Shown: positions 1-36,694, counted from the stretch's first letter. The stretch is DNA of 64,000 bases from Eledone cirrhosa (GCA_964016885.1 OZ024741.1:315022001-315086000), one strand, 5' to 3'. Numbers and translations are program-made. The notes: generated by a model from the sequence alone, not told the origin.

Positions 1-760
1 GAAGAGGAGACCTCAAAAAGGCTACAGAAGGAATGCTAATGGCTGCGCAGGAGCAGGCCCTCAAAACGAAGTGGTTGAAGCACCATATCTACAAGGAGGA
101 GGCTAGCCCACTGTGCAGGATCTGTGGAGAGAGAGAGGAGACTGTGGCTCACATTGTGTCCGAGTGTAAACACCTAGCCCAGACCCACTATAAGGGCTGG
201 AGACACGATGTGATGGGCAGGGTGATCCACTGGCACCTGTGCAAAGTAAACAATCTACCACATTCTGAGAAATGGTATGAGCATAGGCCAGAGGCGGTGA
301 TGGAGAACAGTCAGGTGAAGGTGCTGTGGGATTTTAGGATACAGACGGACAAAAAACTGGAACACAATAGACCTGACCTGGTGGTTGTGGACAAAGAAAA
401 AAGATCGTGCCTGATTGTGGATGTGGCCTGCCCGTTCGACACGAGAGTGCAAGAGAAGGAGAGGGAGAAAATTAACCGATACCAGGACCTAAAGTGGGAG
501 GTGAAAAGGATTTGGAACTGCCATGAAGTCAAAGTGATCCCGATTGTCATAGGCGCACTGGGGACTATCTCCAAAGGTTTCCAGGGATGGTTAAAGAAAA
601 TCGGCCCCTTCACGCTTTTTGGAACGCTTCAAAAGGCATGCTTGCTTGGAACGGCAAGAACCCTCCGATACGTCCTGAATATCTGAGGCTGCAGGTAGTG
701 GCTTGATATTCAATCCAACGGACTTTCCAGTTAACCAACATCAATGACTGAGATTCAAGG
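1..760 (+). mobile_element. R4/Dong-clade RLE non-LTR retrotransposon, family B, copy 1 (3' part; 5' part lies outside the window)
   Basis: Encodes CCHC knuckle (CRIC...HIVSEC), RHD motif and PD..D..K endonuclease (RPDLVV..IVDVACP..EKINRY). A ~75 nt 3' UTR shared with copies ending at ~10650, ~12953 and ~32838 runs into (AAT)n. Confidence 0.9.
33..686 (+). CDS. C-terminal part of RLE retrotransposon ORF (zinc knuckle + restriction-like endonuclease), 5' partial
   Basis: ORF track 217 aa with intact CCHC, RHD and PD-D motifs; frame is open to the window edge. Confidence 0.85.
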   Translation: MLMAAQEQALKTKWLKHHIYKEEASPLCRICGEREETVAHIVSECKHLAQTHYKGWRHDVMGRVIHWHLCKVNNLPHSEKWYEHRPEAVMENSQVKVLWDFRIQTDKKLEHNRPDLVVVDKEKRSCLIVDVACPFDTRVQEKEREKINRYQDLKWEVKRIWNCHEVKVIPIVIGALGTISKGFQGWLKKIGPFTLFGTLQKACLLGTARTLRYVLNI

Positions 761-801
761 AATAACAATAACAATAATAATAATAATAATAATAATAATA
801 A
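761..801 (+). repeat. (AAT)n microsatellite tail/target
   Basis: aataacaataacaataataataat... directly after the family B 3' UTR. Confidence 0.95.
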
Positions 802-1480
802 GGGAAGAAGACGCACGAAGTGGTAGAACGTCACGAAATTGCTCCCGTAAGTTTTTTGATTTTTAACATATTTAAATCAATTGTGAAAGAACAATTCTTA
901 GCACAAATGTTGCATAAAGGCACCGAATGAGGTCCCATAAAGTTTCGGATCCATATTATATTGTTGTATCGCTCAAATATTCAATTTTGTATTATATATT
1001 TTGTATTCAAAAAAAGAAAATGGTTATAAATGGAACAAAACACCCTCTGTCTACACTATATAGAACAGCGGCAATTTCAATTTCACCAACACCAGAAACT
1101 TGATACACTACCTATCCCATCACACTAAATATAACGGCAACTTCACCGGCATCATAATAATAATTACTATTATTATTGTCTCAAATTTTAAAAAATGTTT
1201 AATTCAAATTTTACGGGAATATGTCAACACAAAATATAATGAAAATATATATTAAACATACGAACACAAACTCATAGATACTATATCAGTAACCACAACA
1301 CCACCGCTGCCACCACCCCACCACATCCATCATCGCCGCCACCACTCATTCAATGCTACTGACACTATTCCCCTGTTAACTTGAGAGAGAAAAGGGAAGG
1401 TGGTGGTAGCACTAGACAAGAGAGAGGCTAGCAAAAGATATAAATAGATTGACTTGGTGACCTTGCCACGGACAAACGTC
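802..1480 (+). repeat. Repeated unit, homologous to 5726-6570
   Basis: Both begin aagggaagaagac..gctcccgtaagtttt and share cggatccat, ctcaaatattcaattttgtatta, aaaagaaaatggttat and ctctgtctacactatatagaacag. Confidence 0.85.
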
Positions 1481-1589
1481 TACATCAACAATTATGGGAC
1501 TGCTGGCTCACCCCTTCCTCACCAACAATATAAAAAGCCCCGGCACCACCACCGACATAGCCAGCAGCAATAACAGCCAACTACAACAA

Positions 1590-1660
1590 AAAGTATATTA
1601 TATTATTGTAATGCACTGGGTGATTGCTGGCCTTGTCCCTGGAGTGGAGACAATTATTAA
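1590..1660 (+). mobile_element. 3' fragment of the tRNA-derived SINE
   Basis: gtaatgcactgggtgattgctggccttgtccctggagtggagacaattatt matches the SINE 3' end seen elsewhere in the window. Confidence 0.7.
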
Positions 1661-1724
1661 TAATTTCATTCTTAAGCCACGCAATGCTCACATTAAGGAA
1701 CCACTCATGATAATAACAATTTAA

Positions 1725-4700
1725 AAAAACAACAAAAAGAAAACCCCGTGACCAAGAAATACCGGGATGGCGGCCGGCGGGGAATAGCCGTGTCTCTAGG
1801 GGAGAACGACCCCTCTAGTCTTGGTTGACACTCGTTCTAGAAGTGGTAACACGAAAAGATTACCTCTTGGCGGATAAGGATAAAACGCGACAAAATAAAG
1901 TAGATGTCTAATGATGAAATCTCATACCGGATCGGCCGTCACCCGGGTAAAAAAGGGCCGCGTCCCTCAGAGAGGAACCAGACTGGGGTCGAAAAATCAG
2001 CTAATGGTTCAAACCTTCCCATCACTTCGGAGCTGGAGACCTCCCATAACCGGAATACTCCTACTGTTGGCCCTCCATGCTCACCACCAAGAAATCCAAA
2101 GAAAAAGAGAGAAAAATGGTCAAGGGAAGATAATAAAGAAGTCCTTGAGGCTTTCTACACTGCCATGTACTACCCATCAAATACATCGAATACAGAGCAA
2201 ACATATATCAACTGGAAAAAGAAACATCCCGAAAACAGAGGCTATATTGACAGTAACAAACTAGCCAATATACGAAGAAATATTGTAAGAAAAAAGTTAC
2301 TAACTGATATAGAAATTGATCAGATCAAGCTAGTAGCACAAAGTCAGCGAAGGGAAAATGAAGCATGTGTCAGTGAAAACGAGGTAAACTGTAACACTTC
2401 GAATCCCAGAGTTGGGGCGGAATCACTGGCAACAGAACAAATTAAAGAAAGGAGCGAAAAAGTGGAGGGAGTGCATGCTCAGGATGAAACTCCAAATGAA
2501 AATAATGAGATCGTAAATGATAAAGAAATGAATGAGAATGAACTTGCCAACTTGAAGGATGAAATTATGATCGAATGGATGAAAATGAAAGAATCTGACA
2601 TGGGGGAACGAGACACCCTCCCTAAGATCCAGAACTCCAAACAGAACCAAAAGATAATACACAAGACTAACATAATTCTCAAAAACATTATCATCACAAA
2701 CAAAATAAACATTACTGACTTAAATCATCTCTATTATGCATCGGCTAAAGTCACCACTCACTTATGTGGAGTGAAGATGAAAAAACAAAGGAATTCCCAC
2801 AAGAAATCTACTTGGCAAGAGAACATCAATCGCCAAATAAACCTTCTCCGATCTGACATAGAAATTTTAACAAACTATAAAGTAGGTGAACATGTTAAAC
2901 AAACTAAACTTAGAAAATTTTAAAAAAAGTACAGTATAAAATCAACATGTGACATAGACATGCTGATAGAAATAATCAAGCAAAAAGTGTCGGCCAAAGC
3001 TGCTCGTATAAGGCGCTTTGAAAAACGATCTAGATTCTATAAGCACAATAATATGTTCAAAAACAACCAAAGAAACTTCTACAGAAAAATTGGTAAGCCA
3101 ACAATAACTGCTAAATCAATACCACCCAAGGAGGAAGTGCAAGAATTCTGGGAAAAGATCTGGGCCGAAGAAAAAGTTCATAACATACATGCCCCATGGA
3201 TAGACAGACAAATGAAAGATATGGCTCACCTTGAGGAACAAACATGGGAAAATATAACAGTTGAACAGTTACGCCTGGCTCTAAGAAAAACCAGCAAATG
3301 GAAATCCCCAGGAAAAGACAAAATACAAAACTTTTGGATAAATGCCTTCACAGAGTCTCATGAGCTGTTAGCCCAACTTTACAATGAAATAGTTAAGGAG
3401 CCAGAAAAGATACCTTCATCGCTAGTTAACGGCATTACATTCCTGCTTCCGAAGAATGATGAGACAAACAATCCCAAAAATTACAGACCGATAACTTGGT
3501 TGACCACAATGTATAAAAGTTTAACATCAGTCCTAACTGAATACACATATGACCACCTGATAACAAATTACCTATTTCCCATTGAGCAGAAAGGGTGTAA
3601 ACGAGGCTCATATGGCTGTAAGGATCAGCTTCTGGTTAACAAAATGATACTGGAAGATTGCCATAATAGACACAAAAATCTATCGATTGCTTGGATAGAT
3701 TATAAAAAAGCATTTGATAGTTTGCCACACAGTTGGATTGAAAAATGTTTAGAGATTTTCAAAGTATCCCCCGTTGTCAGGAGGTTTTTGTCATTCAGTA
3801 TGAAGACATGGAAAACGACACTCCTTTTGAATAGTGAAACAAAATCACTGGAAGCTGGAGAAGTTAATATTAAGTGTGGAATTTTTAAGGGTGACTCTTT
3901 ATCACCGCTTTTATTCTGCATCGCACTTATACCATTAAGTAAAATGCTCAATGAAACAAATCATGGATATAAAGTCTATGACAAAACCATTAATCACCTG
4001 TTCTACATGGATGACCTGAAACTATTTGCAAAAAATGATGAACAATTGCAAGGGCTATTATCCACTGTGAAGCAGTTCAGTGATGACATTAAAATGGAGT
4101 TTGGACTAGATAAATGCGCCAAAGCAACGTTCACCAGAGGAAAGCTGCTGAAGAGTTCAGACATTAATCTTGATCGGGGGAACGTGATAAGAGAACTTGA
4201 TCAAGAAAAATCTTACAAATATCTAGGTGTTTGTGAAGGAGACGGAAGCAAGAACTCGACAATGAGGGAAAGGATAAGGAAGGAATGTTACCGCAGAGTG
4301 AGAGCAATCTTAAAAACGGAATTGAATGCAAGGAATAGGATCGATGCCATAAACACGCTTGCCATACCAGTAGTAACCTACAGTTACAATGTCATCAACT
4401 GGTCAAGCACAGAGATCCGTAGGCTCGATACAAAAATTCGAAAATTCTTAACCATCCACAGAATGCATCACTCTAAAGCAGATATAGATAGAATATATCT
4501 CCCTAGGAAAGAAGGAGGACGTGGGTTAATCCAGTTAGACATTGCGTTGAAAACTGCAACAATTGGATTATCTACATATCTAAGGGAATCACATGATTGG
4601 ATGATCAAACTCGTTTTGAAACACGAAAGCATCAAAAGATCACATTCCATTACAAAAGATGCACAAAGATACAGTAATGGACTACAAATTTCAGAAGTCC

Positions 4701-5699
4701 CATTTACTGCTGAAATGGAAAACACAGAAAAAGCAAAGCAGGTAAAAGTAACTGCAAAGAAAGAACTGCTACAGAAACTGGCTAAGAAATGGCAAGAAAA
4801 GCCTCTGTATGGAAAATACCCAGAGCGAGCTAACAATCCTGATGTTTACAAAACTTTAACCCATCAGTGGTTGGCATCCTCTGGACTGAAATCGGAGACT
4901 GAAGGACTGATTATATCCGCACAAGATCAGTGTCTGCCAACAAAAAATTACCAAGCCAACATAATAAAAAATGGGTGCAGCCCATTATGCCGTGTATGCA
5001 AAAAACAACCAGAGACCATTGACCATATAATTTCAATGTGCAGTCCTATAGCTCCAACCGAATACCTAAACAGGCATGACAGAGCTGCACAATACATACA
5101 TTGGATAATGTGTAAGCATTTTGACCTGCCCCATCAAAAGAATTGGTGGGAGCATCAACCACCTCCCATACTTGAAAAAGATCACATCTCAATCTTGTGG
5201 AACTTTAGCATCCAAACAGACCGAAAAATAGATGCAAACAGACCTAATATAATATTGAAAGACTTTCAAAAGAGGGTATGCCTGCTAATTGATATGTCTG
5301 TTCCAATAGACAAGAATGTATCTATAAAAACATTTGAAAAATTGAGCAAGTATAAGGACCTGGAGATAGAAATTGGAAAAATGTGGAAATTGAAAACTAA
5401 AACAATACCAGTGGTTGTAGGCGCTCTGGGAATGATACCTAAGGGGTCTAATGATTACATATCGCAAATCCCAGGAAACCCGCGTATAGGAGAAATACAA
5501 AAGATAGTACTAATGGGAACTGCCCATATACTAAGGAAGATTCTGTCAATATAAGTACATCACAAGTCTAAACACTAAAGATGCATGTGTGAATATGTAT
5601 GTTCTTTCTTGAACATGGCGGACCTTGTTGTCTCTTGAGGTCACTGGTTGTGACTTGGTGATCACTTGTATGAAACATAAAGCAAGATAAATGCAACTG
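1725..5699 (+). mobile_element. R4/Dong-clade RLE non-LTR retrotransposon, family A, apparently full length
   Basis: Structured 5' leader, single long ORF with KWSREDN Myb-like N-terminus, RT (YMDD), CCHC and RLE; flanked by ataataacaat (5') and (AAT)n at 5700-5722 (3'). Confidence 0.92.
1904..5554 (+). pseudogene. Family A RT-RLE ORF (~1216 codons) with one in-frame TAA at 2921-2923
   Basis: ORFs 1904..2923 and 2960..5554 are in the same frame. Motifs KSPGKD, YRPIT, DYKKAFDS, GDSLSP, FYMDDLK, CRVC..H..C, RHD; the catalytic PD is altered to PN (ANRPNII). Confidence 0.9.
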
Positions 5700-5725
5700 T
5701 AATAATAATAATAATAATAATAGAA

Positions 5726-7030
5726 TAAGGGAAGAAGACACACATGGTGGATAGAAGGTCGATACATCGCTCCCGTAAGTTTTGATTTTTTAACATATTT
5801 CAATCAATTGTGAAATAACAATTCTTAGTACAAATGTTGCATAAAACATCCGGCTTGAGTCCCAAAAAATTCGGATCCATAATATATTGTTATATTGCTC
5901 AAATATTCAATTTTGTATTATACATTTTATATTCAAAAAAGAAAATGGTTATACATGGAAGAAAACCCCCTCTGTCTACACTATATAGAACAGCCAAATA
6001 ACAGCAATGTCACCAACATCAGAAACTAAATACACCACCTAACCCATCACCCCTCTCTGTAAACTAAACACAGCAGCCAGATAACGGCAATTTCACCACC
6101 ACCACCACCAATCTCAGCATAATAATAATAATTACTATTACTATTGCCTCAAGTTTTAGTTTTAACAAAATATTTAATTCCAATATTAAGAAAATATGTC
6201 AACACATATACGCGACTAATGATAATTTCACTAAAGATAATTTCACCACCAATACCACCACCACTACCACGATGAAAATTCTGGTCAAGTCGACTCAAAT
6301 TTCTACTTCTATTTCTACTCCAACTTCAACACCATCACTACAGTAATACGACCACATCACCACCACCGCTGCCTCATTATCGCTACCGCCGCTATTCTCT
6401 CCCACTACCTCCTGCTAGTTGCTGCTAGCACAGCACCGCCACCACTACCGCCGCCGCTGCCTCAATATCACTACTGCCGCTATTCTCTCCCGCTACCCCC
6501 CGCTACATTGTAGAATTCCCACTAAAAGAGGAAAACATCAAAATATATAAATAGACTGAATTGATGACCCGGTCAAAATAAAAAAAAAACAAAAATAAAA
6601 ATCAAGTTTTAGTTTTAACAAAATGTTTAATTCCAATATTAAGAAAAATATGTCAACACATATACGCGACTAATGATAATTTCACTAAAGATAATTTACC
6701 ACCAGTGCCACCACCACTGCCACGATGAAAACTCTGGTCAAGTCGACTCAAATTTCTACTCCATCTTCAACACCATCGCTACACTAATACGACCACATCG
6801 CCACCGCCGCTGCCTCATTATCGCTACCGCCGCTATTCTCTCCCACTACCTCCTGCTAGTTGCTGCTGGCACAGCACCGCCACCGCCGCCGCTGCCTTAT
6901 TGTCATTACCGCCGCTATTCTCTCCCGCTAGCCCCTGCTACATGGTAGAATTCTCACTAAAACAGGAAGGCATCAAAATATATAAATAGACTGAATTGAT
7001 GACCCGGTCAAAATCAAAAAAAAAAAATCA
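5726..7030 (+). repeat. Second copy of the 802-1480 unit, with an internal ~450 bp tandem duplication (~6150-6600 vs ~6603-7030)
   Basis: caagttttagttttaacaaaat...gacccggtcaaaat occurs twice in tandem. Confidence 0.85.
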
Positions 7031-7214
7031 AAATCAAAGCAGCACAGCGACAACGAAAAACATAAAGGAAATAAAAATGAAGAGAAAAACAAACGGACGG
7101 ACAGAGAAGGGAAGGGAAAAACTAAGTCAGACATTCAAACACTACATTACAATGAAATTATGCTTATTCATTTTGGGGTTTTTTTCTGCCTGTTTGTTTG
7201 TTTGTTTATTTGGG

Positions 7215-10200
7215 TTCGTCTACAGCGGGATAATGCCACACAAAAGTCACGTGGAGTGACGAAACCACCGGAGACGGTGAATCCACAGGTGGTTATGTAA
7301 CCATACATTCGCCAATCCTCGATAGGAGTGTTTAAATGTCGAACCTAAACAGTTCGAATAACGGTGAAATGGAGACTAGAATGTCATGTGACAGACTCTC
7401 ACCCAACAGGTGCTCCCTGGCTCAGCAGCAGGGACCTGGCTGTCAACCAAATACTGCTGGTGTCGGAGGAAGAAGAAGAAGGAAAGGGACCAGAACCAAC
7501 TTGACGAAAGAATTGAATAGAACTGTTATGCAATGTTATCTGAAGAGTAACCCGAAGGAGAAAGGCTATAGGAAAAGGATGCATAACATCTGGAACGAGA
7601 TTGGTCTATTTAAATTAGATGAACAAAAACTGGCCGGGCAGGCTCGGGTAATAAGAACTAATGGGTGGATAAGCGAGCTGGAACTGGAAGAACAGAGTAG
7701 AGAGATTAGCTTGGAGATGGAGGGTGGAGTATGCCAGGCAAACGAGCCAGTGGGAAATGAAGGTGAAGAGGTCGAGAGAACGGAGCAACCACCCGAAGCA
7801 GACAATGATCTGAATGCTGAGATAAATAATACCTGGAACAGAGATACGGCCACTGAGGAGATGAATGCTGACGGGCTAGGATAAGATTTGGTTGATATCC
7901 TAAACTTAGTGGTAGATGAATTGAACAATGATAGTGGGAGACCTATGAACCTAAGATTTGTAGACAGGAAAAAGTTAAAAGAAACAACAGCTAAGGTAAA
8001 CAAAGTCATCCCATACCTTGAGGCGAGGAGCCTTCACCAGTGCAACAATATCCTCAAAGCAACAGCAAATACGGTGAGGAAACTACTTGGTATAAAAGCG
8101 AGAAGAAACAAGAGACAAGAAAGAGCAGAGCCTTGGTGGAAGAAACGACTGAGTGGTCAAATCAGGGAACTGAGAAATGACATTGGAAAGCTTGAGTCCC
8201 TACTGAATGGGACACTAAAAAACATAGACACTAAAAATAGACTGGAAATAAAGTACAAAACTAGGAGGAAAAACTAAATATTATCATAGAGGAACTGAAG
8301 CAACGCATTGTAGCAAAGAGTGCCAAAATCAGGCGATACGAGAACAGAGTCAGTCAGTATAGACAGAACCGCATGTTCGACAACAACCAGAAGATGCTGT
8401 TTGGACAGCTTGAAGGGAAAGAAAGAGGCAACGACTTGATCCCTGAGGCGGAACAAACTAAAACATTCTGGAGAGGAATATGGGAGCAGGATGTTAAACA
8501 TAATGACCAGGCGGTGTGAATTGAGACAGTACAGAAGGAGATCAGTGAACAGGCACACCAACAAAGTGATTTGAGTATCACAGTTGAAACTTTTAAGGGG
8601 CAGGCCAAAAAACTAACCAACTGGAAATCACCTGGCCCAGATGGTGTGCAGGGGTATTGGATTAAAAACATAACATCCCTCCCCCCGAAACTGACAACCA
8701 TGTTCAATGACTGCTTGATGTCAGGTGAGGTACCAGAGTGGTTGACAAAAGGTACCACAGTTCGGATAATGAAAGACCGAATCAAGGGTAATGATGTTAC
8801 CAACTATAGACCTCTCACATGTCTGTCCGTAATGTGGAAACTGTTGACAAGCATTATGTCTGAGAAAATCTACCATCATCTCCACACAAACAACTTGTTA
8901 CCGGACGAACAGAAAGGATGCCGAAAGAAGTCACATGGTACAACAGATCAGTTACTTATTGATAAGATGGTAATGAGGAATTGCAAGAGAGGACACACTG
9001 GTCTTGCCATGGGATGGATAGACTACAAAAAGGCATTTGACATGGTGCCTCATTCTTGGATCACCAAAAGCCTGGAGATCTTCAAGGTGGCAGATAACAT
9101 CAGACAGTTGTTGAGCAAAGTATGAAGTCCTGGGAAACAGAGTTAACATCAACTGGAGAATCCTTGGGAAGCGTGAAGATCAAGAGAGGTATCATCCAGG
9201 GAGATAGTCTGTCCCCTCTGTTGTTTGTCCTTGCCCGGATGCCCCTGACCAGTGTACTGCGAAAAGTGAGAGCAGGATGCAGGTTGGGAAAGGGAGGGCT
9301 TACCATCAATGACCTCCTCTTCATGGACGATCTTAAGCTCTTCGGGAAGAGTGAGAAGGAGTTGGATGTGCTTGTTGACACTGTCCGTATTTTCAGCAAT
9401 GATATATGTATGCAATTTGGTATTAGTAAGTGTGGAGTCATTGTGATGTGGAGGGGTAAGTTGAGCAGAAGTAACGGAATCCAGATACCAACAGGTGAGA
9501 TGATAAAGGAAATTGACTCTGAGGAAGGATACAAGTATTTGGGCGTTCTGGAGGCTGATGACATCAAGGACAAAAAAATGAAGGAATTGATAAGAACTGA
9601 ATACATTCGGAGAGTAAGGAGCGCATTAAAGTCACATCTGAACAGTAGGAATGCCATAAGTGCAGTAAATTGCCGAGCTGTGTCTATTATTAGGTACAGT
9701 GCGGGAATTCTGAGATGGAATGTTGCCGAACAAAAAGAAATGGATAGGAAGACTAGGAAGCAATTGACTATCTACAATATGTTCCACAAGAGGAGTGATG
9801 TCGATAGACTCTACTTAAGGAGATCTGAAGGTGGAAGAGGTCTTATCAGCATAGAGGACTGTGTTCAGATGGAGAAAAACAACCTACACAAATACGTGAC
9901 TGATAGTAAGGAGCCAATGCTCATAACTGTACTGAAGGAGGGGACAATAGGCCAGGGGATGTCCAAGGAGGAAATAACATCAAGGAGAAAGAGCAGCCTT
10001 CAGGAAAAATCCCTTCATAGTACCTTCTTTGAGAAAACTGAATTTAGAGATCCACAGACATGGAACTGGTTGAAAAGAGGAGACCTTAAAAAGGCTACAG
10101 GAGGAATGTTAATGGCTGCACAGGAGCAGGCCCTCAAAACGAAGTGGTTGAAACACCACATTTACAAGGAGGAGGCTATCCCACTGTGCAGGATCTGTGG

Positions 10201-10650
10201 AGAGAGAGAAGAGACTGTGGCTCACATTGTATCCGATTGTAAACACCTAGCCCAGACTCACTATAAGGGTGGTTTTGGACAAAGAAAAAAGATCGTGCCT
10301 GATTGTGGATGTGGCCTGCCCATTCGACACGAGAGTGCAAGAGAAGGAGAGGGAGAAAATTAACCGATACCAGGACTTAAAGTGGGAGGTAAAAAGGATT
10401 TGGAACTGCCATGAAGTCAAAGTGATCCCGATTGTCATAGGCGCACTAGGGACTATCTCAAAAAGTTTCCAGGGATGGTTAAAGAAAATTGACCCCTTCA
10501 CGCTTTTTGGAACGCTTCAAAAGGCATGCTTGCTGGGAACAGCAAGAACCCTCCGATACGTCCTGAATATCTGAGGCTGCAGGTAGTGGCTTGATATTCA
10601 TTTCAACAAACTTTCCAGTTAACTAACATCAATGACTGAGACTCAAAGAG
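7215..10650 (+). mobile_element. R4/Dong-clade family B, copy 2, near full length, degenerate
   Basis: Structured leader, ORF fragments with KSPGPD, YRPLTCL, QGDSLSP, FMDDLK, CRIC; same 3' UTR as copy 1; (AAT)n tail at 10651-10681. Confidence 0.92.
7336..10574 (+). pseudogene. Family B RT-RLE ORF with stops, frameshifts and a ~185 nt deletion near 10269
   Basis: ORF pieces 7336..7884, 7888..8277, 8571..9125, 9122..10363, 10269..10574; relative to copy 1 the RHD and PD motifs are deleted. Confidence 0.9.
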
Positions 10651-10681
10651 TAATAACAACAATAATAATAATAATAATAAT

Positions 10682-12038: not shown

Positions 12039-12039
12039 C

Positions 12040-12953
12040 ACCATGCTCAGAGCTGTACTGAAGGAGAGGACAATAGACCAGGAGGAAATAACAACAAGGA
12101 GAAAGAGCAACCTTCATGAAAGATCCCTTCATAGTACCTTCTTTGAGAAAACTGAATTCAGAGATCCACAGACATGGAACTGGTTAAAAAGAGGAGACCT
12201 TAAAAAGGCTACAGAAGGAATGCAAATGGCTGTGCAAGAGCAGGCCCTCAAAACGAAGTGGCTGAAACACCATATTTACAAGGAGGAGGCTAGCCCACTG
12301 TGCAGGATCTGTGGAGAGAGAGAGAGGAGACTGTGGCTCACATTGTATCCGAGTGTAAACACCTAGCCCAGACTCACTATAAAGGCTGGAGACATGATGT
12401 GATGGGCAGGGTGATCCACTGGCACCTATGCAAAGTAAACAATTTACCACATTCTGAGAAGTGGTATGAGCATAAACCAGAGTCGGTGATAGAAAACAAT
12501 CAGGTGAAGGTGCTGTGGGATTTTAGGATACAGACGCACAAGAAACTGGAACACAATAGACCTGACCTGGTGGTTTTGGACAAGGAAAAAAGATCGTGCC
12601 TGATTGTGGATGTGGCCTGCCCATTCGATACGAGAGGCCAAGAGAAGGAGAGGGAGAAAATTAGCCGATACCAGGACTTAAAGTGGGAGGTAAAAAGGAT
12701 TTGGAACTGCCATGAAGTCAAAGTGGTCCCGATTCTCATAGGCGCACTAGGTACTATCTCAAAGAGTTTCCAGGGATGGTTAAAGAAAATTGGCCCCGCC
12801 CCGCTTTTTGGAACACTTCAAAAGGCATGCTTGCTGGGAACAGCAAGAACCCTCCGATAGAACCTTCCAATATCTGATGCTGCAGGTAGTGGCTTGATAT
12901 TCATACTAACAAACTTTCCAGTTAACCAACATCAATGACTGAGACTCAAAGAA
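12040..12953 (+). mobile_element. R4/Dong family B, copy 3, 5'-truncated
   Basis: Matches 9913-10650 and 1-760; frameshift in a GA run at ~12320; (AAT)n tail to 12969. Confidence 0.92.
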
Positions 12954-12969
12954 CAATAATAATAATAAT

Positions 12970-23448: not shown

Positions 23449-23494
<46 letters not shown>

Positions 23495-23689: not shown

Positions 23690-23862
23690 TGTTTCTACTT
23701 TAGGCACAAGGCCAGCAATTACCCAGTACATTACTGGTACTTTATTTTATCGACCCCGTAAGGATGAAAGGCAAAGTTAACCTCGGCGGGATTTGAACTC
23801 AGACTGTAAAGGGATGTAACTATGCTAGAAAACATGGCGTCCAACCCTCTACCGATACTGCC
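23690..23862 (-). mobile_element. tRNA-derived SINE, near full length
   Basis: On - strand: A box tggcagtatcgg, B box gagttcaaatccc, central gcctttcatccttacggggtcgataaa, (ATT)n tail. Confidence 0.9.
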
Positions 23863-23868
23863 AATAAT

Positions 23869-26248: not shown

Positions 26249-26545
26249 CAGAAATAATATACTCACAGATACTGAAATAACTGCGATCAAGCAAGCTGTG
26301 GCGAATGACATATATATAAATCATGAAAAAACTGAAGATCTCCTGGAGATAGTAACCAGTCACATGTCTTTATCAAAAGACAACCATCTGACCAAATCTC
26401 AAAAGATTTGTAGGAATGAGAAGTGCTATTGAACTTACTGAAAATAGCTAGGAATGGGGCAAAGAAACAGTACTTGAAGACCAAACGTTTTTCTGAAGAA
26501 CACAGAGAATCAATGAAGGAATTGAAACAAAATACTGAATGAGCT
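26249..26545 (+). pseudogene. N-terminal fragment of a third R4/Dong-like family
   Basis: RNNILTDTEITAIKQAV resembles family A RKKLLTDIEIDQIKLVA. Confidence 0.55.
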
Positions 26546-26567
26546 TGCAGTTATAAGACTAGTATAA

Positions 26568-26662
26568 AGTATGTTAGAAAGCATGGCGTCCGACCCTCTG
26601 CCGATACTGCCAATTCACCGCCCTTATATAATTCACCGCTCTTATATAATTCACGCCCTTAT
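26568..26662 (-). mobile_element. SINE 5' head fragment followed by a triplicated ~18-mer
   Basis: gcatggcgtccgaccctctgccgatactgccaattcaccgccctt, with (a)attcaccgcYcttatat repeated three times. Confidence 0.75.
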
Positions 26663-26688
26663 ATAACGACCAATAATAATATTAATAA

Positions 26689-29600
26689 TGATTTTTTATT
26701 AACCACAAGGGTTGACACAAAGTATGACATTAAGGACAACATAGGACAATACAGGACAGTACAAATCGTCATTTTTGCGTGTACAAAAAAACAAAACAAG
26801 ATGTAACAAAAAAAGAAACAAAGAAAACCTCCGAGGTCGCTCGTGGAGAAAGCCCACAAAAGAGCCACGGTTACCCTGACCGCTAGAGCAATGCGCTCTT
26901 CCTGTTTTCCGCCTACGATGCTACAGATACAAGCACAGGGTAGGCCCATTCACATGGGCCATTCTTGCCACTCTAAACCACCTTTCAACTAACTGGCTGG
27001 CAGGCAGCACTTCCCTCTCCACCCTGATTTTCCTTTTCAGGTGAAATCTGAAAAAGTTAATGAGGGCGTCACCGAAGAGGAATGTACCCGTCTTCAACCC
27101 TTTTAGACGTGTCCACCATACGATCTCTTTTACCATGGCCATCGGGCAAATAAAAACTGCCCACTCTTCCTGGCTAAAGGAAGGAGGCGGGGTAATCCTC
27201 ATGATGGACTCAGCTGATAGCCGGATCCGTCCTACACGCGACAGCAAGTGTTCGACATAAACCCGTAAGTCAGCAATGCTCGGACACTGGCCGTGTGCGA
27301 GCAGGACGGTTCCTCCCCTGCGCGCATCTCGGACAGGAACGGCTCACGGCACTTCCATGCCTGTAGAGTTTATCCCGAACTGGCAAAGCTCCTCGGTAGC
27401 ACTGCCAGGCCAGGGATTTCGGGAAGTTTTCCATATGCCCCGGCCTGAAAGTTCTCCCGAAGAGATTGTCTAGTTGATTTTCGTCGACGCCCAGAGTCTC
27501 CCCAAGGATGTCGTCGCTCTTTCCCTCCACTAACCCTCTATAGAACGCCAAGGTGGAGTTCCCACCGATCGCATTGCCCGACTGGTCGAGTGCTGTAAGC
27601 GCCTGAAAACATTACAGTCTCCAAGCGCTCCCTCTCGGTCTTCGCTTGACCCAGGATTGCAGCACCGTCAAGGAGACGAGCAGGGGAAACACGCGTCTAG
27701 CAAACGATAACCATACTGATCACCGTCGAGGAAGAGGTGGAGATGCCGTAGCCTGAGCGCATATCTGCGCATTATCAGCCACGGCACGCCCAGCCCTCCG
27801 CGTAGCGGGTGTTGACAGCAGATGGACCGCCTGACCATCGGAGCACCTCCCTTCCACAAAAAGTGAAAGAGCAAAGACTCCAGCGTAGTCAGGCGAGGCT
27901 TAGGACAAGGTACTACGGTCAGGCGGTAGTAGATGACGGACGCGATGTACGCGTTAGCCACCTCCGTCGACGTTTCAGGTATAGCTTCCTCGCGGCCCAT
28001 TTCTGGGTGAGAGAGGCCACCCTGTTCGTCACCTCGTCCCAGTTTTTGTCCATCTGGAAATCCAGACCGAACCAGACCCCTAGCAATTTAACCGGTCCGT
28101 CGGTCCAGCGCCCGACTACGCTGTTGGATGACATGCACCTGGCTCTCCAGGTGCCGAGCTGCAGGCTCAGCGAATTTTCCTGGTTGATCATTGCTCCTGT
28201 GGCCGCCTCGTATTCTCTTAGTGTGGTGCCGATTGCTTCGATGTGTTTGGCTTTCGGCACTACTACGATGACGTCATCTGCATATGCTGACACGGTTCTT
28301 CCGCATTCCAGTTCGCGCGGGAACCCCGTCAACGTCTTCAGTCGGTGCAGTAATGGCTCGAGAGTCAATACGTATAACAGGGACGAGAGGGGACATCCTT
28401 GGCGTACCGATCGCATGATGTTGAACGCTTCCGAAAGGTTACCGTTCACTCTTACCAGAGAGCAGATGTTGTTCTGCATGGCAGCAATCCAGTCTCTGAA
28501 GACGGGCCGAAGGCCAGTCGCCCTCGGGACTGCCGTCAGATAACGATGGTCGACCCTATCGAAAGCTTTCGACTGATCTAAATTGATCAAGGACCCACCC
28601 GTACCAGGTTCCCTAGCTACCCGCTCCACGATGTATAGTATGAGGTGGAGGTTGTCGTGGATGGATCTGTCTGGAATGGCGCATGTGTGCAACTCTCCCA
28701 CCAGACCTCCAACGACAAGCGCCAACCTCTTTGCTAATACTTTGGACAAAATCTTGAAATCTGTGTTTAGCAGCGTTATGGGCCTAAAATTATTTATGAC
28801 ATCCTCCTTGTCCGGATCCCTTCTCAGCAGCGCCACCGCTCCTCAGCTCACAGAGCTGGGAATTCTCCCGTTCTGCTGCTAGTTGCAGTAGAGGTCCGTC
28901 CACCAAGAGGTCTCATAACAAGTCTGGCATATTTACGTAAAATTCGTAGGGCAAACCATCCAAACCGGCCGATTTACCCATTTCGCAGCCAATTATTCAC
29001 TCCCGTACTTCAGCGCTGTTATCGACTTTTCGCAACAGTGGCCAAGTGCCGCGGCAGTCCGTCGAGGTAGGCACTATAGTACATCCCGTGATACGGCCCG
29101 CCGCTGCTCCAGAACGGCTGAGCAAAGTATCGCTGAAAAGCCGTACACATTTTCCCGGGTTCGAGTAGCATGTGCCCCTCGTGGTCTTCCAAAGACAGGA
29201 TCGTGGGTCTGTTGCCACGACGCGCCTCCGCCACTCGGGTCATCGAACGGCTTTCGCCCCCTCGTGTCTGAGGGCATGCACCCTAGCTCTGACAACGCAG
29301 CCTTCGTGCTTAGAGTTTAAAAATTGGTTGAGGGCCAATTTCGACGCAAGCACGTCGGTCGCGATGCCTTTAGTAAGCGCCCCGTCAAATTTTCTAACTA
29401 GTTCTCCCTCTGCTCTATTTTTCTCTATTACTAACGCTCTACTAAACCTAATGGAATCTATTCTAATCGCTCCTTTCAGGGCCAACCCCCATTTCTTGTT
29501 GACGATGGCTCCCGTCAACGCCCGCCAACGCACGCTTAACTAATTCACTACTCCGGTCTCTATAAACTTTTTGCGCCGGAACGACGCGTGTAGCTTCCAG

Positions 29601-32336
29601 TAACCGGGTCCCTGTCTATGAAGACTATCTAAGTGAACGACACAGATCACAATTTGTGGTCCCTGTAGTCGACTATCTTGAATTGTGGACAGCCTATGCT
29701 AGACCTATCTATTTCCCTATCTAGATATGATCTGGATGACCCAATGCGGTTTGTCCAAGTCCACATTGGCACATTCGGAAATCCAACCGGTACCTGTCAG
29801 AAAGGTGAAAACGTCTGTGCAAGTTTGTGAGGCTTTTACACCCTCCTCCCCTATCCGCTAATCCCACACAATCCCAGCGTGCATCTAAGATCCCGTTCCA
29901 GTCGCCCACTAAAACTAAAGAGCGGGACCTTCCAAGAAAGGTCTCCAGACGCTGGAAGAATTCAGGCCGTCCTGCTCCCGTTGGGGCATAGACGGCCACT
30001 AGCCTGAAAGCTTGTCCTTCTTCGTTGGTCACGTCCAGCACCACCAACTTACCTTATGGGTCCAAGAAAACGGCCCGTATCTCGAGATCCAGACTTCTCC
30101 GGAACAACACGCCCCCTCCCCCGATCTGGGATGGCCTGGAAATATGTACACCTCGTAGCCGCCGAAAATGGGTGCCTCGGAGATTCTGGTCTCGCTGATG
30201 GCCACCACATCTATGTTTAGCGTCTTGAGATCGTTCAGCAGATGGCCCTGCTTCCAAGACGAACCCAGGCCACGTACATTTATGCTAACTATTCTGAGAG
30301 AAGCCATGTTGGATAGGATAAGAGGAAAACAAATGAGAGGGGAAAAGTATAAAAATTACCTGTGGCTCTTTTTTAGGAAGGGGATGGGTTATCCATCCCT
30401 CCGACCAGTGGTGGGTTTCTCCCCGAGAATGTTCGTGAATATTCGTTTGGTGATGTTGCCTCGGTAGTCTCCAATTGATGTGGGAACATTTTTTAGATGT
30501 CATGTAATTTTTGTTTGATTTCTATTATTCTTTTGTGTGTGCGGGGTGCAATTTTGGTGGTTTGTACGTAGTTTGTTTCTGTGATGTTGGTGTCGTGTTG
30601 AATGTAATTTAAAAGCTTTGTGTTGTCTGTGTTTATGGCTGTGTATTGTGTCTGTTGTTTGGGTGTTGGTGCTTTTTGTGGTGGTGGTGTTGTTGGTGGT
30701 GGTGGTGATGGTGTAGGTGGTTATGGGGGTGTGGCTTTTCATGGTGGTGTAGGAGGTGGGGTAGTTTTCATTTTCGTTGGGGGGGGGGGGATTATTTATT
30801 TCTCTTCTTGGGGGAGCAAGGTAGGGAGTTCTCCTTTTTTTGTTGGGATAGATCTTCATTCTTCGGCCTCATCGCACTCCTTGTCCGATTTAGTTATATC
30901 AGGAAGGGGAATGCTTTCCATTGGTTCTGTGGGTGGTGGAAGAGATGGTGCTTTTGTTGTTGGGGATGGTGATTCCTCTTCTGCCACTGTGTTATTTGTT
31001 GTTTGTCTGCTCCAGTTGTGAGGCACGGCGTGGGGAGAAGGGGTGGGCGCGTGCCCGTTTTGGTGAGTTTGGAGCAGAAGGCCTTAAGGTGCGTCTTGTC
31101 ACCGCATCCATGACAGCTTGGGTGCCTACCTTCGACAGTCACGGGTAGATGGCTGCCGCCGTCCAGGTCTATTACATCGGGGATGGCCTCGATGCTCTCA
31201 TGGTCTGCTTGGATGATTAGCTCCATCCCCGACCCTGTCTTATTCACATGACTTTGAGTATAATTGTCGAATCCTCAACGTCAGCGAGGACGGCCACCGT
31301 CAACCGCGCCATCTCCACTGAGGGCGGAACCTGGACCACTCGAACCATCAGACTCTCTGGCCGCAGTATGTGGGCATCATTATGATTTCGTTAATGCGGT
31401 GCAATGGAGTGTGCTCTGGCTTATTCTGGTATAGCGCATAGCACAACCACAGTGCCATACCTCGATCTCCGGGCTATGTATGTTTTCTGTGCCCAGACGG
31501 CAGCCATAGCTCTTTGAACCTGTGACTCGGTTGCCCGTTCAACTCGCTGCGATTTTGTTCCGATCGTGCAATAACTGACCGAACACAAAAGCTTGTTTCT
31601 TATTATATCAGCTGGGTGGGTGAGACTTACCTTGTGTCCGGTCATGTTAACCAAGACATTCGCTTGTTTTATTTCTTCATTGGTGATGTGTACTTGTTCA
31701 AAATTGTTTGTCGCTTTAGCGAAAGACGTTTTTGTTTTGATTTGTGTTGATTCATCGCTAGTTTTGTCTTTGTTGTTGTTGCCGTCGCTGGTGTTTTTGT
31801 TTGTTTTTTTCCTCTGTGTTGCTGTTGTTATAGTTGCTGCTCCTTGGGTTCTTTATGGCTGTTGCTGTTGTTATTGTTATTATTGGGGTTGTGGTGGTGT
31901 TTGATTTTTCTAACGTAGGGAAGTTTTTGTTGTAATTTGCACTACTACTGCTACTGTTCCAGTTGCTGTTGCTACTGTTGTCACCACCACTGTCATTGTC
32001 GTTGCTGCTGCTGTTTCTCTTGTTTTTTACTTTGCCTTATGATTGGATGGAATCGGCTGTTTCACCCTCCGAACAACCCACTGTTTCTCCCTGTGGACAA
32101 TTTTTTTTGTCCCCCATGTTTTATTTAAAAAAAACAACAACATTTTGGGGGGTACGATTGTAAATAAATACAAATTCAGCCCTCAAGCGCGCGAGATACA
32201 GTTAAAAAACCACCTCCTTTAAAAGAGGGGTTCTTTAACTACGCACCGATGTAAAAAATACTATATAGAACTTTCGATAAATCATAAAAATTAAACTAAC
32301 TTACTCCGCCGTAGTTACAGCCGTCTCGAGAGATTC
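26689..32336 (-). mobile_element. Tx1 retrotransposon T5, full length, frameshifted; same family as T2
   Basis: ORF1 from ~32118, ORF2 from 30307 to stop at 26921; AYADD and QGCPLS in ORF 27919..28836; (AAT)n on both sides. Confidence 0.92.
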
Positions 32337-32345: not shown

Positions 32346-32637
32346 TGTTTCTACTTTTTGGCACAAGGCTAGGAATTATCCCAGTGAATTACTGGTACTT
32401 TATTTCATCGACCCCGTAAGGATGAAAAGCAAAGTTAACCTTGGCAGGATTTGAACTCAGACCATAAAGGGCCGTAACTCTTTGCTGCAAAGCATGGCGT
32501 CCGACTCTCTACCGATAGTGCCAATCCACCATAATAATTGTTTCTACTTTAGGCACAAGGCCAGCAATTAACCAGTACATTACTGGTACTTTATTTTATC
32601 GACCCCGTAAGGATGAAAGGTAAAGTTAACCTCGGCG
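32346..32637 (-). mobile_element. Two tandem SINE copies (32346-32530 near full; 32539-32637 5'-truncated)
   Basis: Each starts ataattgtttctactt..ggcacaagg on +. Confidence 0.9.
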
Positions 32638-32661
32638 CCATAATAATGATAATAACAAAGC

Positions 32662-32838
32662 ATGGTTAAAGAAGATTAGTCCATCCCCGCTTTTTGGAAC
32701 ACTTCAAAAGGCATGCTTTCTGGGAACAGCAAGAACCCTCCGATACATCCTGAATGTCTGAGGCTGAAGGTAGTGGCCTGATATTCATTTCAACAAACTT
32801 TCCAGTTAAATAACATCAATAACTGAGACTCAAAGAAC
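32662..32838 (+). mobile_element. R4/Dong family B, copy 4, extreme 3' fragment
   Basis: tggttaaagaagatt...cttcaaaaggcatgc...gagactcaaagaac, between AAT-like tracts. Confidence 0.9.
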
Positions 32839-32856
32839 AAAAATGATAATAATAAT

Positions 32857-33043
32857 TGTTTCTACTTTAGGCACAAGGCTAACAATTACCCAGTGCATTA
32901 GTGGTACTTTATTTTATCGACCCCGTAAGGATGAAAGGCAAAGTCAACCTCAGCGGGATTTGAACTCAGACTGTAAAGGGACGTAACTATGCTAGAGAGC
33001 ATGGCGTCCAACCCTTTACCGATACTGCCAATTCACCGCCCTT
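32857..33043 (-). mobile_element. Full-length tRNA-derived SINE (~187 nt)
   Basis: 5' aagggcggtgaattggcagtatcgg (A box) ... gagttcaaatccc (B box) ... tail; (AAT)n on both sides. Confidence 0.92.
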
Positions 33044-33066
33044 AAAAATGATAATAATAATAATAT

Positions 33067-36000
33067 TGGTTTCATTTATTGGCCACAAGGGCCGTCATAT
33101 TGGGGACGATAGACTAGACAGGGACAGTGGGGCTTTACATAAAAATCGAATAAAAAAAATAGGAAAGCAATAACAAGAAACAAGAAAAATACAACAATGA
33201 AAGATTCCCCAATAGGGGGGGGGTGACCACCCAGGGTTGACTCAAATACCACACCAATCCTGAACCAACCGACGCTTCGAGAGCACCACGGAAGGAAACC
33301 CCTCTCCTCCTCAAATTCACCGACCTACAGGCGCATAATTAGAGTAGGCCCACTCACACGGGCCATTCTCGCCACATTCACCAAACTTGTAGCAAATGTA
33401 TTGGGGGGGGGCAGCACTTCTCTCACCACCCTCACCTTTCTTTTCAAGTGAAACTTGAAAAAGTTGATGAGGGTTTAACCGAAGAGAAAAATGTCTGTCT
33501 TCAGTCCTTTCAACCTGGTCTACCATACAACCTCTTTCACTACTGCCACCAGACAGAGGAAAATTGCCTGCTCTTCCTGGCCAAAAGAAGGCGGCGGGTC
33601 GATCTTCACTATGGACTCGGCCGATATCCGGATCCCTTTACACACGACAACAGCTGTTCGACATAACTCCACAAGACAGCAATGCACGGGAGTGCGTGGA
33701 GAAGGGTTTCGTCGCTCTGCGCGCATTTCGGGCAGGTCAGTCTGACGGCACTTCCGTGCCTGCAGAGTTTATCTTGAATCGGCAGTGGCCCCCGGTAGCA
33801 CTGCCAAGTGAGGGATTTTTGTCAGTTATCCATCGTCTCCGACTCGAAAGTCCTCCGGAACAGACTAGTTAGTTCGACTTTGTCGACGCCCAGAGCCTCT
33901 CCGAGTACGTCGTCGCTCTTGCCCACCATTAATCCTCTATAGAACTCGAGAGTGGAAATTTCACTGACTGCATTGCCCACCTGGTAGAGCGCAGTGAGTA
34001 CCTGGCAACATTCCAGATGCCAGTCACCCAGTCTCGGTCTCTTCTTGACCCAGGACTGCAGCTCAGTCAAAGAGACGAGCTGCGGAAAGGCCCCTCTGAC
34101 AAACGGCGACTATACCTGTTCAGCGTTTAGGCAGAATATCTGGAGATGCCGCAGCCTCAGTGCATGTCTGCGCATCATTAGTTACAGCATGCCCAGCCCT
34201 CCACGTAGAGGGTGCTGGCAGCTGATGGACAGCCCCACCAACGGAACCTGTCCCCTCCACAAGAATTTGAAGTAGAGCTGTTCCAACTTGGCGAGGCGCG
34301 GACGAGGGTAAAGCAAGACTGACAGGCGGTAGTAGATGACGGACCGATGGTCGACCCTATTGATTGCTTTCGATTGATCTAAATTGATCAGAGCCCCCAC
34401 CGAAGCCAGGTTTACACTCTACCCAATTCTATGATGTATCGCATGTGATGGAAGTTGTCGTATATAGACCTGGACGGGATTGCACAAGTTTGCGCATCCC
34501 CAACCAAATCCTCGACGACAAGCGCCAACTTCTTCGTTAATACCTTGGTCAATATTTTAAACTCTCTTTTGAGCAGAGTTATGAGCCGGAAATTATCTAA
34601 TGTGTCCCTCTTGTTCTCGTCTTTCCTTATCAGCGTCACTACGCCCCGGCTTATAGAACTGGGAATACTCCCATTCTGCTTCCAGTTACAGTAGAGCCCT
34701 TCAAAGAGATCGGAGAACAAGTCTGGCATATTTACGTAAAGCTCGTAGGGCAGTCCATCCAAACTGGCTGACTTGCGCCTCATGCAGCCGATAAGGGCAT
34801 CTTGAATCTCGGCTGAAATAATCGGCCTTTCGCAGTGCTCAGCGTCGGCCGTCGAGAGATGCGGCAAGCCATCGAGGTAGAGACTGAAGTCCGTCACCAT
34901 CTCTGACCCGCCACTTTCCCCGAACAACCGAGCAAAATGTTGGCGAAAGGCCTCACACATCCGCTTGGAATCGCTCAGCTCGTGTTCGTCTCGGTCCGTC
35001 AAAGACCGAATCATGGTTTTATTACCGTGCTGCGCCTCTGCCACGCGGGCCCATCGAACAGCTTTGGTTCCCTCGTTTCTCAGAGCACGTGCCTTAGCTC
35101 TGACAATGCAACATTCGTGTTTCGCATTGAAGAAATTATCTAATGCCATTCTCGCCGCTAGCACGTCAGTTGCAATGCCACTACAAATAGCCTCGTCTAA
35201 CTCATCTACCAGCTCTCCCTCCTTTCTATTTTTCTCTAACGCTACTTCTTTGCTAAACTCTATCGACATTACTCTAATTTCTCTTTTGAGAGACCCCACC
35301 ATCTATAGTTGACGACTCCCCCTGTCAACTTTTTCTTAACTAAATTGTTGATCCGCTCATATCGGATACTCCCACACAATCCCAGCGTGCGTCTAAGATG
35401 CCGTTCCAGTCCCCCGCTAACAGTAAAGGATGACTTCGACATCTGCCTGTGCAATTAAAGCTGCCCTCTTGGTTTCTGCTGAGATGCATCTGTAATGCAC
35501 CGTTCTGAGCTCCACTGCTTCAATAGCTTCTACCGGGACAGTAAAGTTTACCCAGGTTTGTTCTTGCTTGATGAGCCTGGGCCAACATTTCTTCTTTGTT
35601 CGAGAGGTCCATGCTGAAGCATGGCCTCTTTTTGGCTGCTGCCGCAGCGAAAGTGTTGCTGTTGTTGTCGTTGGTGCTGTTGTGGTTGTTCTTGTTAGTG
35701 TTGTTGCTGTTATCACTGTTGCAGTTCGTTATATCTTTGGTGCCGCCGGTGTTGTTGTTCTCGGTGCAGTTGGTATTGTTGCTGCTGGTGCTGTCGCTGT
35801 TTATGTTCTTGTTAGTGGTGTTAATTTCGTTGTTGTTTTTGTTGTCATCATCTTTGTTGTCTGTCTTTTGGTTGTCACTGTTACTGCTGAGGTTAGTATT
35901 GTCGTTGTTGTTTTTTAAAGTTTATTGATTTCACTATTGGTGTTGCTGCTGCAGTTGTTAATGCTGCTTTTGGTGGTGCTGCTAAATGTATGCGTAGTAT

Positions 36001-36297
36001 AAATGAATGCGTTTCCCACCTCTCAACATTTAGGTTGCTGCCACACGACAGCAGATTTAAAGTTGGGGGTCGTGGCTCAGCCATGTTTTTTTTTTCGAGA
36101 ATATTTTTAAAAATACAAATAACTTCAAATATTTGGGACTTTTGGTCCAAATATTACACAGTTACCCCTTCACAGAGCAAAGACGCAAGTCTTAAGACCT
36201 TTTTAAAAGAATGCAACAATTATCATAAATGAAAATAAACAGAAAATGTCCTACATTTCCGGAGCTCCAAAAACACATCTTCACTGATCGATAGGCA
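33067..36297 (-). mobile_element. Tx1 retrotransposon T6 (distinct family), both ends present, multiple internal deletions
   Basis: ORF1 start ~36084, ORF2 remnant 34412..35302 (DGLPYELY, FRLITLL); deletion junctions at ~34342 and ~35360-35430; AAT flanks. Confidence 0.87.
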
Positions 36298-36305
36298 ATA
36301 ATAAT

Positions 36306-36477
36306 GATTTCTAGTATAGGTACAAGGCCAGTAATTTGGGAGGGAAGGCAAATCGATTAAATTGACCCCAGTGCATTACTCGTTCTTTATTTTATCGACT
36401 GCGTAAGGATGAAAGCCAAGTTAACCTCGGCGGGATTTGAACTCAGACCATAAAGAGGCGTAATTCTACCGATACTG
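36306..36477 (-). mobile_element. SINE variant with an extra segment near its 3' end; closes the array
   Basis: Same B box and central domain, plus gggagggaaggcaaatcgattaaattgacccc; similar variants at ~42500 and ~59832. Confidence 0.8.
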
Positions 36478-36694
36478 AACTGTTCCCTGAAGCAGAAATA
36501 TTGTAATTATGTTTAGTGTAACAACACCATCTAATATTTGTGCGCCTTTACCAGACTTAAGTCGCTTGGATCTATTCGAGGCATGTCTGGAAAATACATC
36601 GCTACACTTTCTTCCTCTAGGTTTCGTCTACCACGACAGAACTGAAAATTCCAGGATTACTTCTCTTCCCGTTCTGTATAAATAAATAAATAAA

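Follow-up and report, generated by a model that had tools for sequence, protein, structure and literature searches.

Polarised AAT arrays of two LINE groups and a SINE in the genome of Eledone cirrhosa

Why do about twenty retroelements stand end to end in one stretch of cephalopod DNA, mostly separated by a three-base repeat, and why does each kind keep to one strand? The question is raised by 64,000 nt of the Eledone cirrhosa assembly (GCA_964016885.1 OZ024741.1:315022001-315086000; 3.0 Gb), hereafter the window, which carries the last 36.5 kb of a ~46-kb array of (AAT)n tracts, long interspersed nuclear elements (LINEs) and short interspersed nuclear elements (SINEs). We read it as one of many such arrays, with LINEs that encode a restriction-like endonuclease (RLE) on the AAT strand, and Tx1-like LINEs that encode an apurinic/apyrimidinic endonuclease (APE) together with a SINE on the ATT strand, grown by repeated target-primed insertion; we put the probability of this reading at about 0.8. 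An original prediction, made from the sequence of the window, had proposed a target common to both LINE groups with opposite polarity, and this extends genome-wide; it had also treated the locus as a special sink, which it is not, given the many similar arrays. Negative coordinates lie upstream of the window start, L-numbers denote genomic loci fetched from the same assembly, and C1 and C2 are assembly sequences, the window being on C2.

A common target and opposite polarity

Twenty pieces were counted in 1-36480 from the sequence and self-BLAST, matching the number of insertions first estimated over 36 kb: five RLE LINE copies on the + strand, six APE LINE copies and six inter-element SINEs on the - strand, two nested SINEs and one unrelated repeat fragment. 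All 14 AAT tracts of the original prediction were found, at or within ~12 nt of the positions given there. An AAT-phase run of at least 8 nt stands at 13 of the 17 inter-element junctions, so that the pieces are mostly separated by (AAT)n as described; the 23863 junction has 6 nt, and three junctions (12042/12043, ~26240 and ~26566) have no tract, nor does the right array border at ~36478. The predicted strands likewise hold for both LINE groups and for the inter-element SINEs, although one nested SINE (~23228-23340) lies on +.

The + elements contain one open reading frame (ORF; 1216 aa in L235) with a reverse transcriptase (RT) followed by a CCHC zinc knuckle, RHD and a PD-(D/E)xK nuclease, and the CCHC, RHD and PD-D-K motifs are present in copies of both families, DongA and DongB. 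R2 proteins were the sole matches in a PDB search with the RLE protein, and the APE domain (Exo_endo_phos, Pfam) was not found in the RLE elements. They are RLE-type retrotransposons without long terminal repeats (non-LTR). 'R4/Dong' should be taken as a working name, drawn from architecture and target, the homologues matched being unnamed RT clusters.

The - elements have two ORFs, a 698-aa ORF1 with a CCHC knuckle and an ORF2 with an N-terminal APE, RT, zf-RVT (Pfam) and a C-terminal CCHC. The best PDB match of ORF2 was human L1 ORF2p (E 1e-49, residues 4-858); the APE domain alone gave no PDB match. These elements are LINEs of the L1 group (L1/Tx1). In a quick RT tree, with neighbour names assigned automatically and row P0045 left out, the window copies fell in a 19-row clade near fish elements with a ZCCHC3-type ORF1 and a coral protein TX1, a placement that is not strongly supported, the joining branches having SH-aLRT (approximate likelihood ratio test) values of 84-85. 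'Tx1' is also best kept as a working name, the evidence pointing to membership of the L1 group, a wider claim than membership of the Tx1 clade.

Polarity was counted at de-duplicated junctions across a tract in 207 loci of 3 kb, under the rule that Dong runs opposite to Tx1 and SINE and that like runs with like. The rule describes 202 of 208 distinct junctions (157/168 in a looser count), so orientation is not random genome-wide: Dong and Tx1 are opposite at 45/45 junctions, Dong and Dong agree at 47/48, and SINE and Tx1 agree at 51/52. Thirty-seven head-to-head junctions (Dong/Tx1 or Dong/SINE) carry a tract, which cannot be a tail because neither neighbour's tail can supply it. A Tx1-like copy and a SINE 10-15 kb farther upstream both lie on +, and polarity is therefore local to the array.

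The sequence before the element heads was examined separately for each group. In the young Tx1-like subfamily G (Tx1-G), a 7-nt ATT-phase word precedes 1615 of 1655 exact heads in the whole genome; 5' junctions elsewhere are thus not mostly devoid of the repeat. Among the first 30 Tx1-G heads by position, all 30 have a same-phase run of at least 8 nt within 40 nt and one has a run in the opposite phase; their tracts measure 15-81 nt, and 26 of them adjoin another array member, always in the predicted orientation. In subfamily B (Tx1-B), 26/26 non-redundant full-length heads have an ATT run ahead of the leader that the element itself carries, the window copy and three duplicate loci having been dropped. 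For Dong, exact counts genome-wide gave a 7-nt AAT-phase word within 1-2 nt of 758 of 1359 heads; in the first 30 by position, 26 have a same-phase run of at least 8 nt within 40 nt, none has one in the opposite phase, and 18 adjoin another array member. The median tract length at heads is 59 nt for Dong versus 28.5 nt for Tx1-G. The background, taken from 600 kb of evenly spaced genomic samples that also supplied the random SINEs, has an ATT-phase run of at least 8 nt in 0.55% of random 26-nt windows and 0.98% of random 40-nt windows. The Tx1-like LINE has a target-sequence preference, and the Dong-like LINE inserts into (TAA)n and ends in a TAA tail.

Truncated Dong fragments, down to 71 bp, have tracts on both sides, and another array member follows each of the four full-length Dong copies that were fetched and keep an intact 3' end. 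Insertion of Tx1-G into Dong bodies with addition of its own tract was rejected, as Dong does not continue past the adjoining Tx1-G in 6/6 fetched truncated cases. Random tracts of at least 10 units are LINE tails in 6 of 10 by hand count (5 by script rule). Elsewhere, the L194 locus holds within 10 kb 11 copies of a tandem repeat with (ATT)4 in each unit, free of insertions.

A filled and an empty site were found among paralogous loci. At L130 and L131 a Tx1-A tail is followed by (ATT)n and then a SINE head; in the paralogue L132/L231 these flanks enclose a 6.03-kb Tx1-G lying within the tract. The ATC variant that opens the host Tx1-A tail recurs after the inserted Tx1-G and, standing on both sides, marks a ~21-nt target duplication starting at the first triplet. 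Here, then, one element has inserted into the tail of another and duplicated the target; duplications starting ATTAT are also present at Tx1 copies L114, L129 and L146. As the original prediction held, the tracts are targets and not merely tails; this is borne out by the head-to-head junctions, the truncated copies with flanking tracts and the filled/empty pair.

Nor did the array arise by segmental duplication, an outcome that would have refuted the original prediction. The DongA pair of the window is 94.0% identical versus 97.4-99.0% for the best copies elsewhere, the Tx1-B pair 86.5% versus 85.9-91.4%, and the DongB pair 97.75% versus up to 98.1%. Tandem duplication of the window array was rejected because same-family members are not mutually nearest, distant copies matching them at least as well.

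The SINE and its likely partner

The SINE does not itself target (AAT)n, contrary to the original prediction. An ATT run of at least 8 nt lies upstream of just 10 of 56 random SINEs with an intact 3' end, and one of at least 12 nt upstream of two; the SINE as a microsatellite-specific element was rejected, most random copies lying outside (ATT)n. A flanking match of at least 9 nt is present in 33 of 54 random SINEs, compared with 48/579 mismatched pairs in the control (four of the matches, 17-29 nt long, extend into tandem SINEs). Of these 33 duplications, 27 start with ATTAT, a word found in 5% of random 25-nt windows, and 27 are preceded by C or T. The same test within array loci was uninformative (control 274/596). 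The SINE inserts at the short motif ATTAT with target duplications, and it joins arrays because the tracts are dense in ATTAT; L1 also inserts at a short motif, TT/AAAA.

A hairpin with a CUUGU loop, ~15 nt before the tail, is common to the SINE and all Tx1-like subfamilies examined, and both elements lie on the same strand with an ATT tail. Across 13 ends from the window, three of the four base pairs of the hairpin have changed at both positions, and the three inner pairs are intact in 79-81 of the 83 ends counted for Tx1 and in 101 of 107 for the SINE. The second pair is C-G in Tx1 but reversed to G-C in the SINE, and the third varies between A-U and G-C among Tx1 ends. Dong 3' ends gave no similarity to the SINE 3' end (p 0.25-0.996). 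Since the SINE and Tx1-like 3' ends share a hairpin with compensatory changes, the Tx1-like LINE likely mobilises the SINE in trans; the hairpin is good but not conclusive evidence of partnership, given the short stem and the non-independence of related copies. The SINE makes up ~2% of the 600 kb sampled, counted with the element library of this analysis alone, gave no tRNA match in Rfam over 23600-36600, and may resemble octopus SINEs of the OR1/OK type. Upstream of the array, L155-L153 (window -48000 to -32900) hold eleven similar SINE copies on -, spaced 0.8-2.4 kb, which suggests a local tandem repeat.

Several observations concern the 5' ends of the LINEs. DongA and DongB share ~40% protein identity, yet the first ~480 nt of their 5' untranslated region (UTR) are common at 87% (window 800-1280 and 5727-6210), which likely reflects exchange of 5' ends between families of the same arrays. 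A third element at 800-1640 and 5722-7050 was considered and rejected; the stretches 800-1900 and 5727-7345 belong to RLE elements as their long 5' UTRs. The DongB 5' UTR (window ~1605-1660) contains a fixed sense SINE 3' fragment, with the hairpin and a short ATT tail, in most of 29 other copies. At L035, L079, L089, L090, L280 and L301 a (GAA)n run stands before the Dong head, either in addition to the AAT tract, on its element side, or instead of it; the run is apparently an expansion of the element's own first bases. Among the Tx1-like LINEs, L231, L105, L124 and L097 show subfamilies with unrelated 5' heads on related ORF1, including a G head on a B-type 3' end; comparison of these copies suggests repeated replacement of the 5' UTR.

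Mechanism and alternatives

In target-primed reverse transcription the RNA is complementary to the strand that is nicked. The AAT strand must therefore prime an RNA with an AUU tail, and the ATT strand one with a UAA tail, so opposite polarity follows in any one tract. We propose that the Tx1-like APE would nick the AAT strand just before the first ATT, with the consensus Y/ATTAT on the element strand and a 9-21 nt duplication, and that the RLE would nick the ATT strand with a preference for longer tracts. The SINE would use the Tx1-like protein in trans via the hairpin and accept a minimal ATTAT site. Each new tail would be a further target; as each insertion leaves tract on both sides and adds a tail, the supply of targets would grow. 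The array is most likely a neutral by-product rather than a host structure. A more specific proposal has, in our judgement, slightly better than even odds: that an undescribed ATT-targeting Tx1-like lineage is the stringent partner of the dominant SINE and, with Dong on the opposite strand, makes up a self-renewing three-member system, with thousands of polarised arrays absorbing insertions. In such a system SINE and LINE tails would seed (ATT)n, both nucleases would read the same repeat on opposite strands, and one protein would combine strict microsatellite targeting in cis with pentamer targeting in trans.

A number of points weigh against growth by target-primed insertion as we describe it. 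Loci that come from DNA searches are best-matching copies, not a random draw. The exact pattern is missed by 601 of 1359 Dong heads, mostly via extra bases in the sample seen, and 4 of the 30 inspected have no run of 8 nt. Six of the 208 junctions break the polarity rule: one involves the SINE piece that is fixed within the UTR of DongB and one a Dong 5' piece in inverted orientation, two are SINEs at a distance of ~100 nt from the next element, and two are pairs joined tail to tail. An ATT run of at least 8 nt stands at the junction in just 15 of 30 apparent 5'-truncated older Tx1-like copies (background 0.55%; hand-filtered from 45 rows by removal of 5 full-length copies and 10 rows that were duplicates, gaps or library breaks); the remainder may reflect later deletions or off-target insertions. 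One Tx1-B subfamily has its own ATT-like 5' leader, so part of the 5' tract can be element-derived, and Tx1-G could conceivably carry a leader as well. The primary-sequence similarity of SINE and Tx1 is modest (p 0.002-0.99 over 20 comparisons), and the hairpin is just 3-4 pairs long.

Duplication or co-mobilisation also contributes at other loci. On C1, at 55.43-55.46 Mb (L311-L314), there are two tandem Tx1-G/Dong repeats and five Tx1-G units in tandem, and an 813-bp truncated DongB fragment occurs twice with 0 mismatches, flanking one Tx1-G unit. An unequal-crossover origin of the repeated unit finds no support in the mismatch pattern, and the unit is not a hybrid of its neighbours; the repeat is possibly a ~0.85-kb target duplication between two tracts. 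At L128, L140 and L141, three loci, a Tx1-A 3' end is followed by the same truncated Tx1-B piece, a composite that was probably co-mobilised (3' transduction). Finally, strand choice by the nuclease and by RNA-primer pairing are not separable by sequence, and strand-specific nicking is what we infer.

It is accordingly possible, though we hold it the less probable account, that the target is common but polarity comes from the RNA tail, its UAA or AUU repeats pairing with the complementary nicked end while the nucleases are loose or two-stranded on A/T-rich repeats. Such pairing predicts the same orientation counts and suits a SINE that needs ATTAT alone, equal to its own tail, and annealing of target and RNA is proposed for SART1 in passages of PMC7265360; the same passages report that endonuclease swaps move specificity in SART/TRAS, and here Tx1-G heads are always at tracts of at least 15 nt and Dong heads at longer ones, which exceeds the need of priming. 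RNA-tail pairing would in any case alter one step and leave the array model intact. A host-selected trap or a dual-strand PIWI-interacting RNA (piRNA) source is improbable: the array does present both families, sense and antisense, over ~46 kb, and piRNA clusters reportedly exist in molluscs (PMC6128900), but no locus-specific selection is needed because similar arrays are common genome-wide. Least probable is that the tracts are element-carried 3' tails or 5' leaders and the arrays products of read-through co-mobilisation or local duplication, which would fit the Tx1-B leader, the doubled Dong fragment of the C1 array and the Tx1-A/Tx1-B composite, but is contradicted as the main cause by the tracts at head-to-head junctions and at truncated copies that have lost any leader, by the insertion into a tail and by window members that are not mutually nearest.

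The array starts at window position -9318, where unique flank is followed by (AAT)20, a full DongB, (AAT)22 and a full DongA that ends at 772; its members within the window are given in Table 1. Outside the array, a degraded RT-like repeat lies at 39500-42100 on the - strand, and related stretches at 47570-47720 and 55280-55540 are 73% identical over 147 nt, the second adjoining a short segment that is rich in Cys and resembles an exon; a host gene may contain or neighbour the array. A genome search with the DongA 3' end gave no match, probably because its words are too common, and one with the DongB 3' end gave 8 places only. DongB-like sequence was found in contigs of sequencing runs X1, X4, X5, X8 and X9, as were Tx1-like and SINE sequences where compared, and no contig of these runs bridged an empty site; with X4 of low depth and the run names coded, they support no claim on host range or horizontal transfer.

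Table 1. Members of the array and other features of the window, with positions counted from its first nucleotide.
Feature	Position	Strand	Remarks
DongA RLE LINE 3' end (full-length copy starting -4241)	1..772	+	CCHC, RHD, PD-D-K motifs
(AAT)9 tract	773..799	+	DongA tail and DongB 5' junction
Full-length RLE LINE DongB	800..5700	+	~1.1 kb 5' UTR; RT and C-terminal CCHC/RLE; single ORF 1904-5554, stop at ~2921; catalytic PD is PN here
(AAT)7 tract	5701..5721	+	
Full-length DongA	5727..10660	+	internal 450-bp UTR duplication and deletion; fragmented ORF
(AAT)7 tract	10661..10681	+	tail-to-tail between DongA and Tx1-like copy
Tx1-like LINE 3' fragment, subfamily A	10682..12042	-	5' junction without tract
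DongA 3' fragment	12043..12954	+	ends in (AAT)5 at 12955-12969
Tx1-like LINE subfamily B	12970..17551	-	both ends kept, internal deletion
(AAT)9 tract	17552..17578	+	Tx1-A tail and Tx1-B 5' junction
Tx1-like LINE subfamily A	17579..23677	-	apparently full length; APE domain ~20857-21375
5'-truncated SINE nested in Tx1-A APE region	20797..20907	-	non-repeat site; 13-14 bp target duplication, reading ATTAT... on the SINE strand
5'-truncated SINE nested in Tx1-A 5' UTR	~23228..23340	+	sole SINE on +
SINE	23690..23862	-	tail is 23678-23689
Tx1-like LINE (C)	23868..26235	-	large internal deletions, 5' end lost
Unrelated repeat fragment	26240..26566	.	93% copy ~10 kb upstream of window; no tract either side
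SINE head only	26567..26671	-	tail absent; 5' junction is Tx1-B tail
Tx1-like LINE subfamily B	26690..32336	-	both ends kept
Two tandem SINEs	32346..32637	-	32346-32530 full, 32539-32637 truncated; ATT tail on each
188-bp DongA 3' fragment	32655..32842	+	AAT-like tracts both sides
Full-length SINE	32857..33046	-	3' CUUGU-loop hairpin
Tx1-like LINE (D)	33067..36296	-	internal deletions
Older SINE variant, final array member	36306..36477	-	5' border without tract
Separate Tx1-like copy outside array	60246..64000	-	used for classification; open 1146-aa ORF2 60487-63927
Pure tract runs	773-799, 5701-5721, 10661-10681, 12955-12969, 17552-17578, 23678-23689, 26672-26680, 32337-32345, 32848-32856, 33053-33064, 36297-36305		tracts near 23863, 32531 and 32640 short or imperfect

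Relation to known systems

An APE and an RLE element are known to share one repeated locus in the case of the R1 and R2 LINEs, which occupy the 28S ribosomal DNA; there the sites are tens of bases apart, the orientation is the same and insertions do not regenerate the target. TRAS1 and SART1 are APE elements of the R1 clade. In Bombyx mori they insert in opposite directions into one repeat, according to passages of PMC7265360, and thus resemble the present system in having two elements, one repeat and opposite directions. They differ in that both are APE elements and mainly telomeric, whereas here one RLE and one APE element share a dispersed target. The poly(A) tail of SART1 does not replenish its target, whereas in the present arrays the tails themselves constitute the target.

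For the RLE partner, passages of PMC3812793 describe a TAA microsatellite target for Dong, also in a mollusc. The present RLE LINEs are like Dong, DongAg and DongBg of the R4 clade in this target, and here a single ORF with RT and a C-terminal RLE is seen; they differ in comprising two ~40%-identical families with a common 5' UTR start of ~480 nt. An opposite-strand APE partner of Dong is not described in the literature passages covered. For the APE partner, Kibi, Koshi and the crocodilian (TTCC)n/(TTTC)n families are Tx1-clade APE LINEs with microsatellite targets (passages of PMC4494074); these targets are TC, TTC, TTCC or TTTC, in contrast to ATT/AAT here, and an ATT/AAT target was not found in the main-text passages of that source. 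The same passages infer mobilisation of SINEU by Tx1-Mar from a common target preference and report tandem insertions that flank a target-site duplication. In that case a DNA transposon is the target, and preference and age are the evidence; here the evidence is a 3' hairpin with compensatory changes, and the site of the SINE is a pentamer.

In Octopus vulgaris, Dong-R4, L1-Tx1 and SINEs rank among the major repeat classes with recent activity (PMC13282606, in part), as they do in coleoids generally (PMC8967140, in part), and their target sites in cephalopods are not described in the passages covered. Those of PMC4640811, PMC5786205, PMC3747384, PMC4824008 and PMC9115989 contain no ATT-specific Tx1, no Tx1-related octopus SINE tail and no such arrays. 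No ATT-targeting Tx1 or Dong/Tx1 co-nesting was found in the literature searched; Repbase, Kojima and Fujiwara 2004 and the first descriptions of Dong and SART1 lay outside its scope, as did the supplements of PMC4494074, and may hold prior art. The present reading accounts for a common large-scale repeat structure in a cephalopod genome and gives a candidate LINE for moving a very abundant SINE; among its new leads, the most useful are the hairpin common to SINE and Tx1 and the unequal stringency of LINE and SINE. The arrays also offer a natural experiment on specificity and polarity, in which two nuclease folds meet a single 3-nt repeat and a single enzyme handles two templates of different stringency. 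Set beside these known systems, they are real, genome-wide and a new combination of known behaviours.

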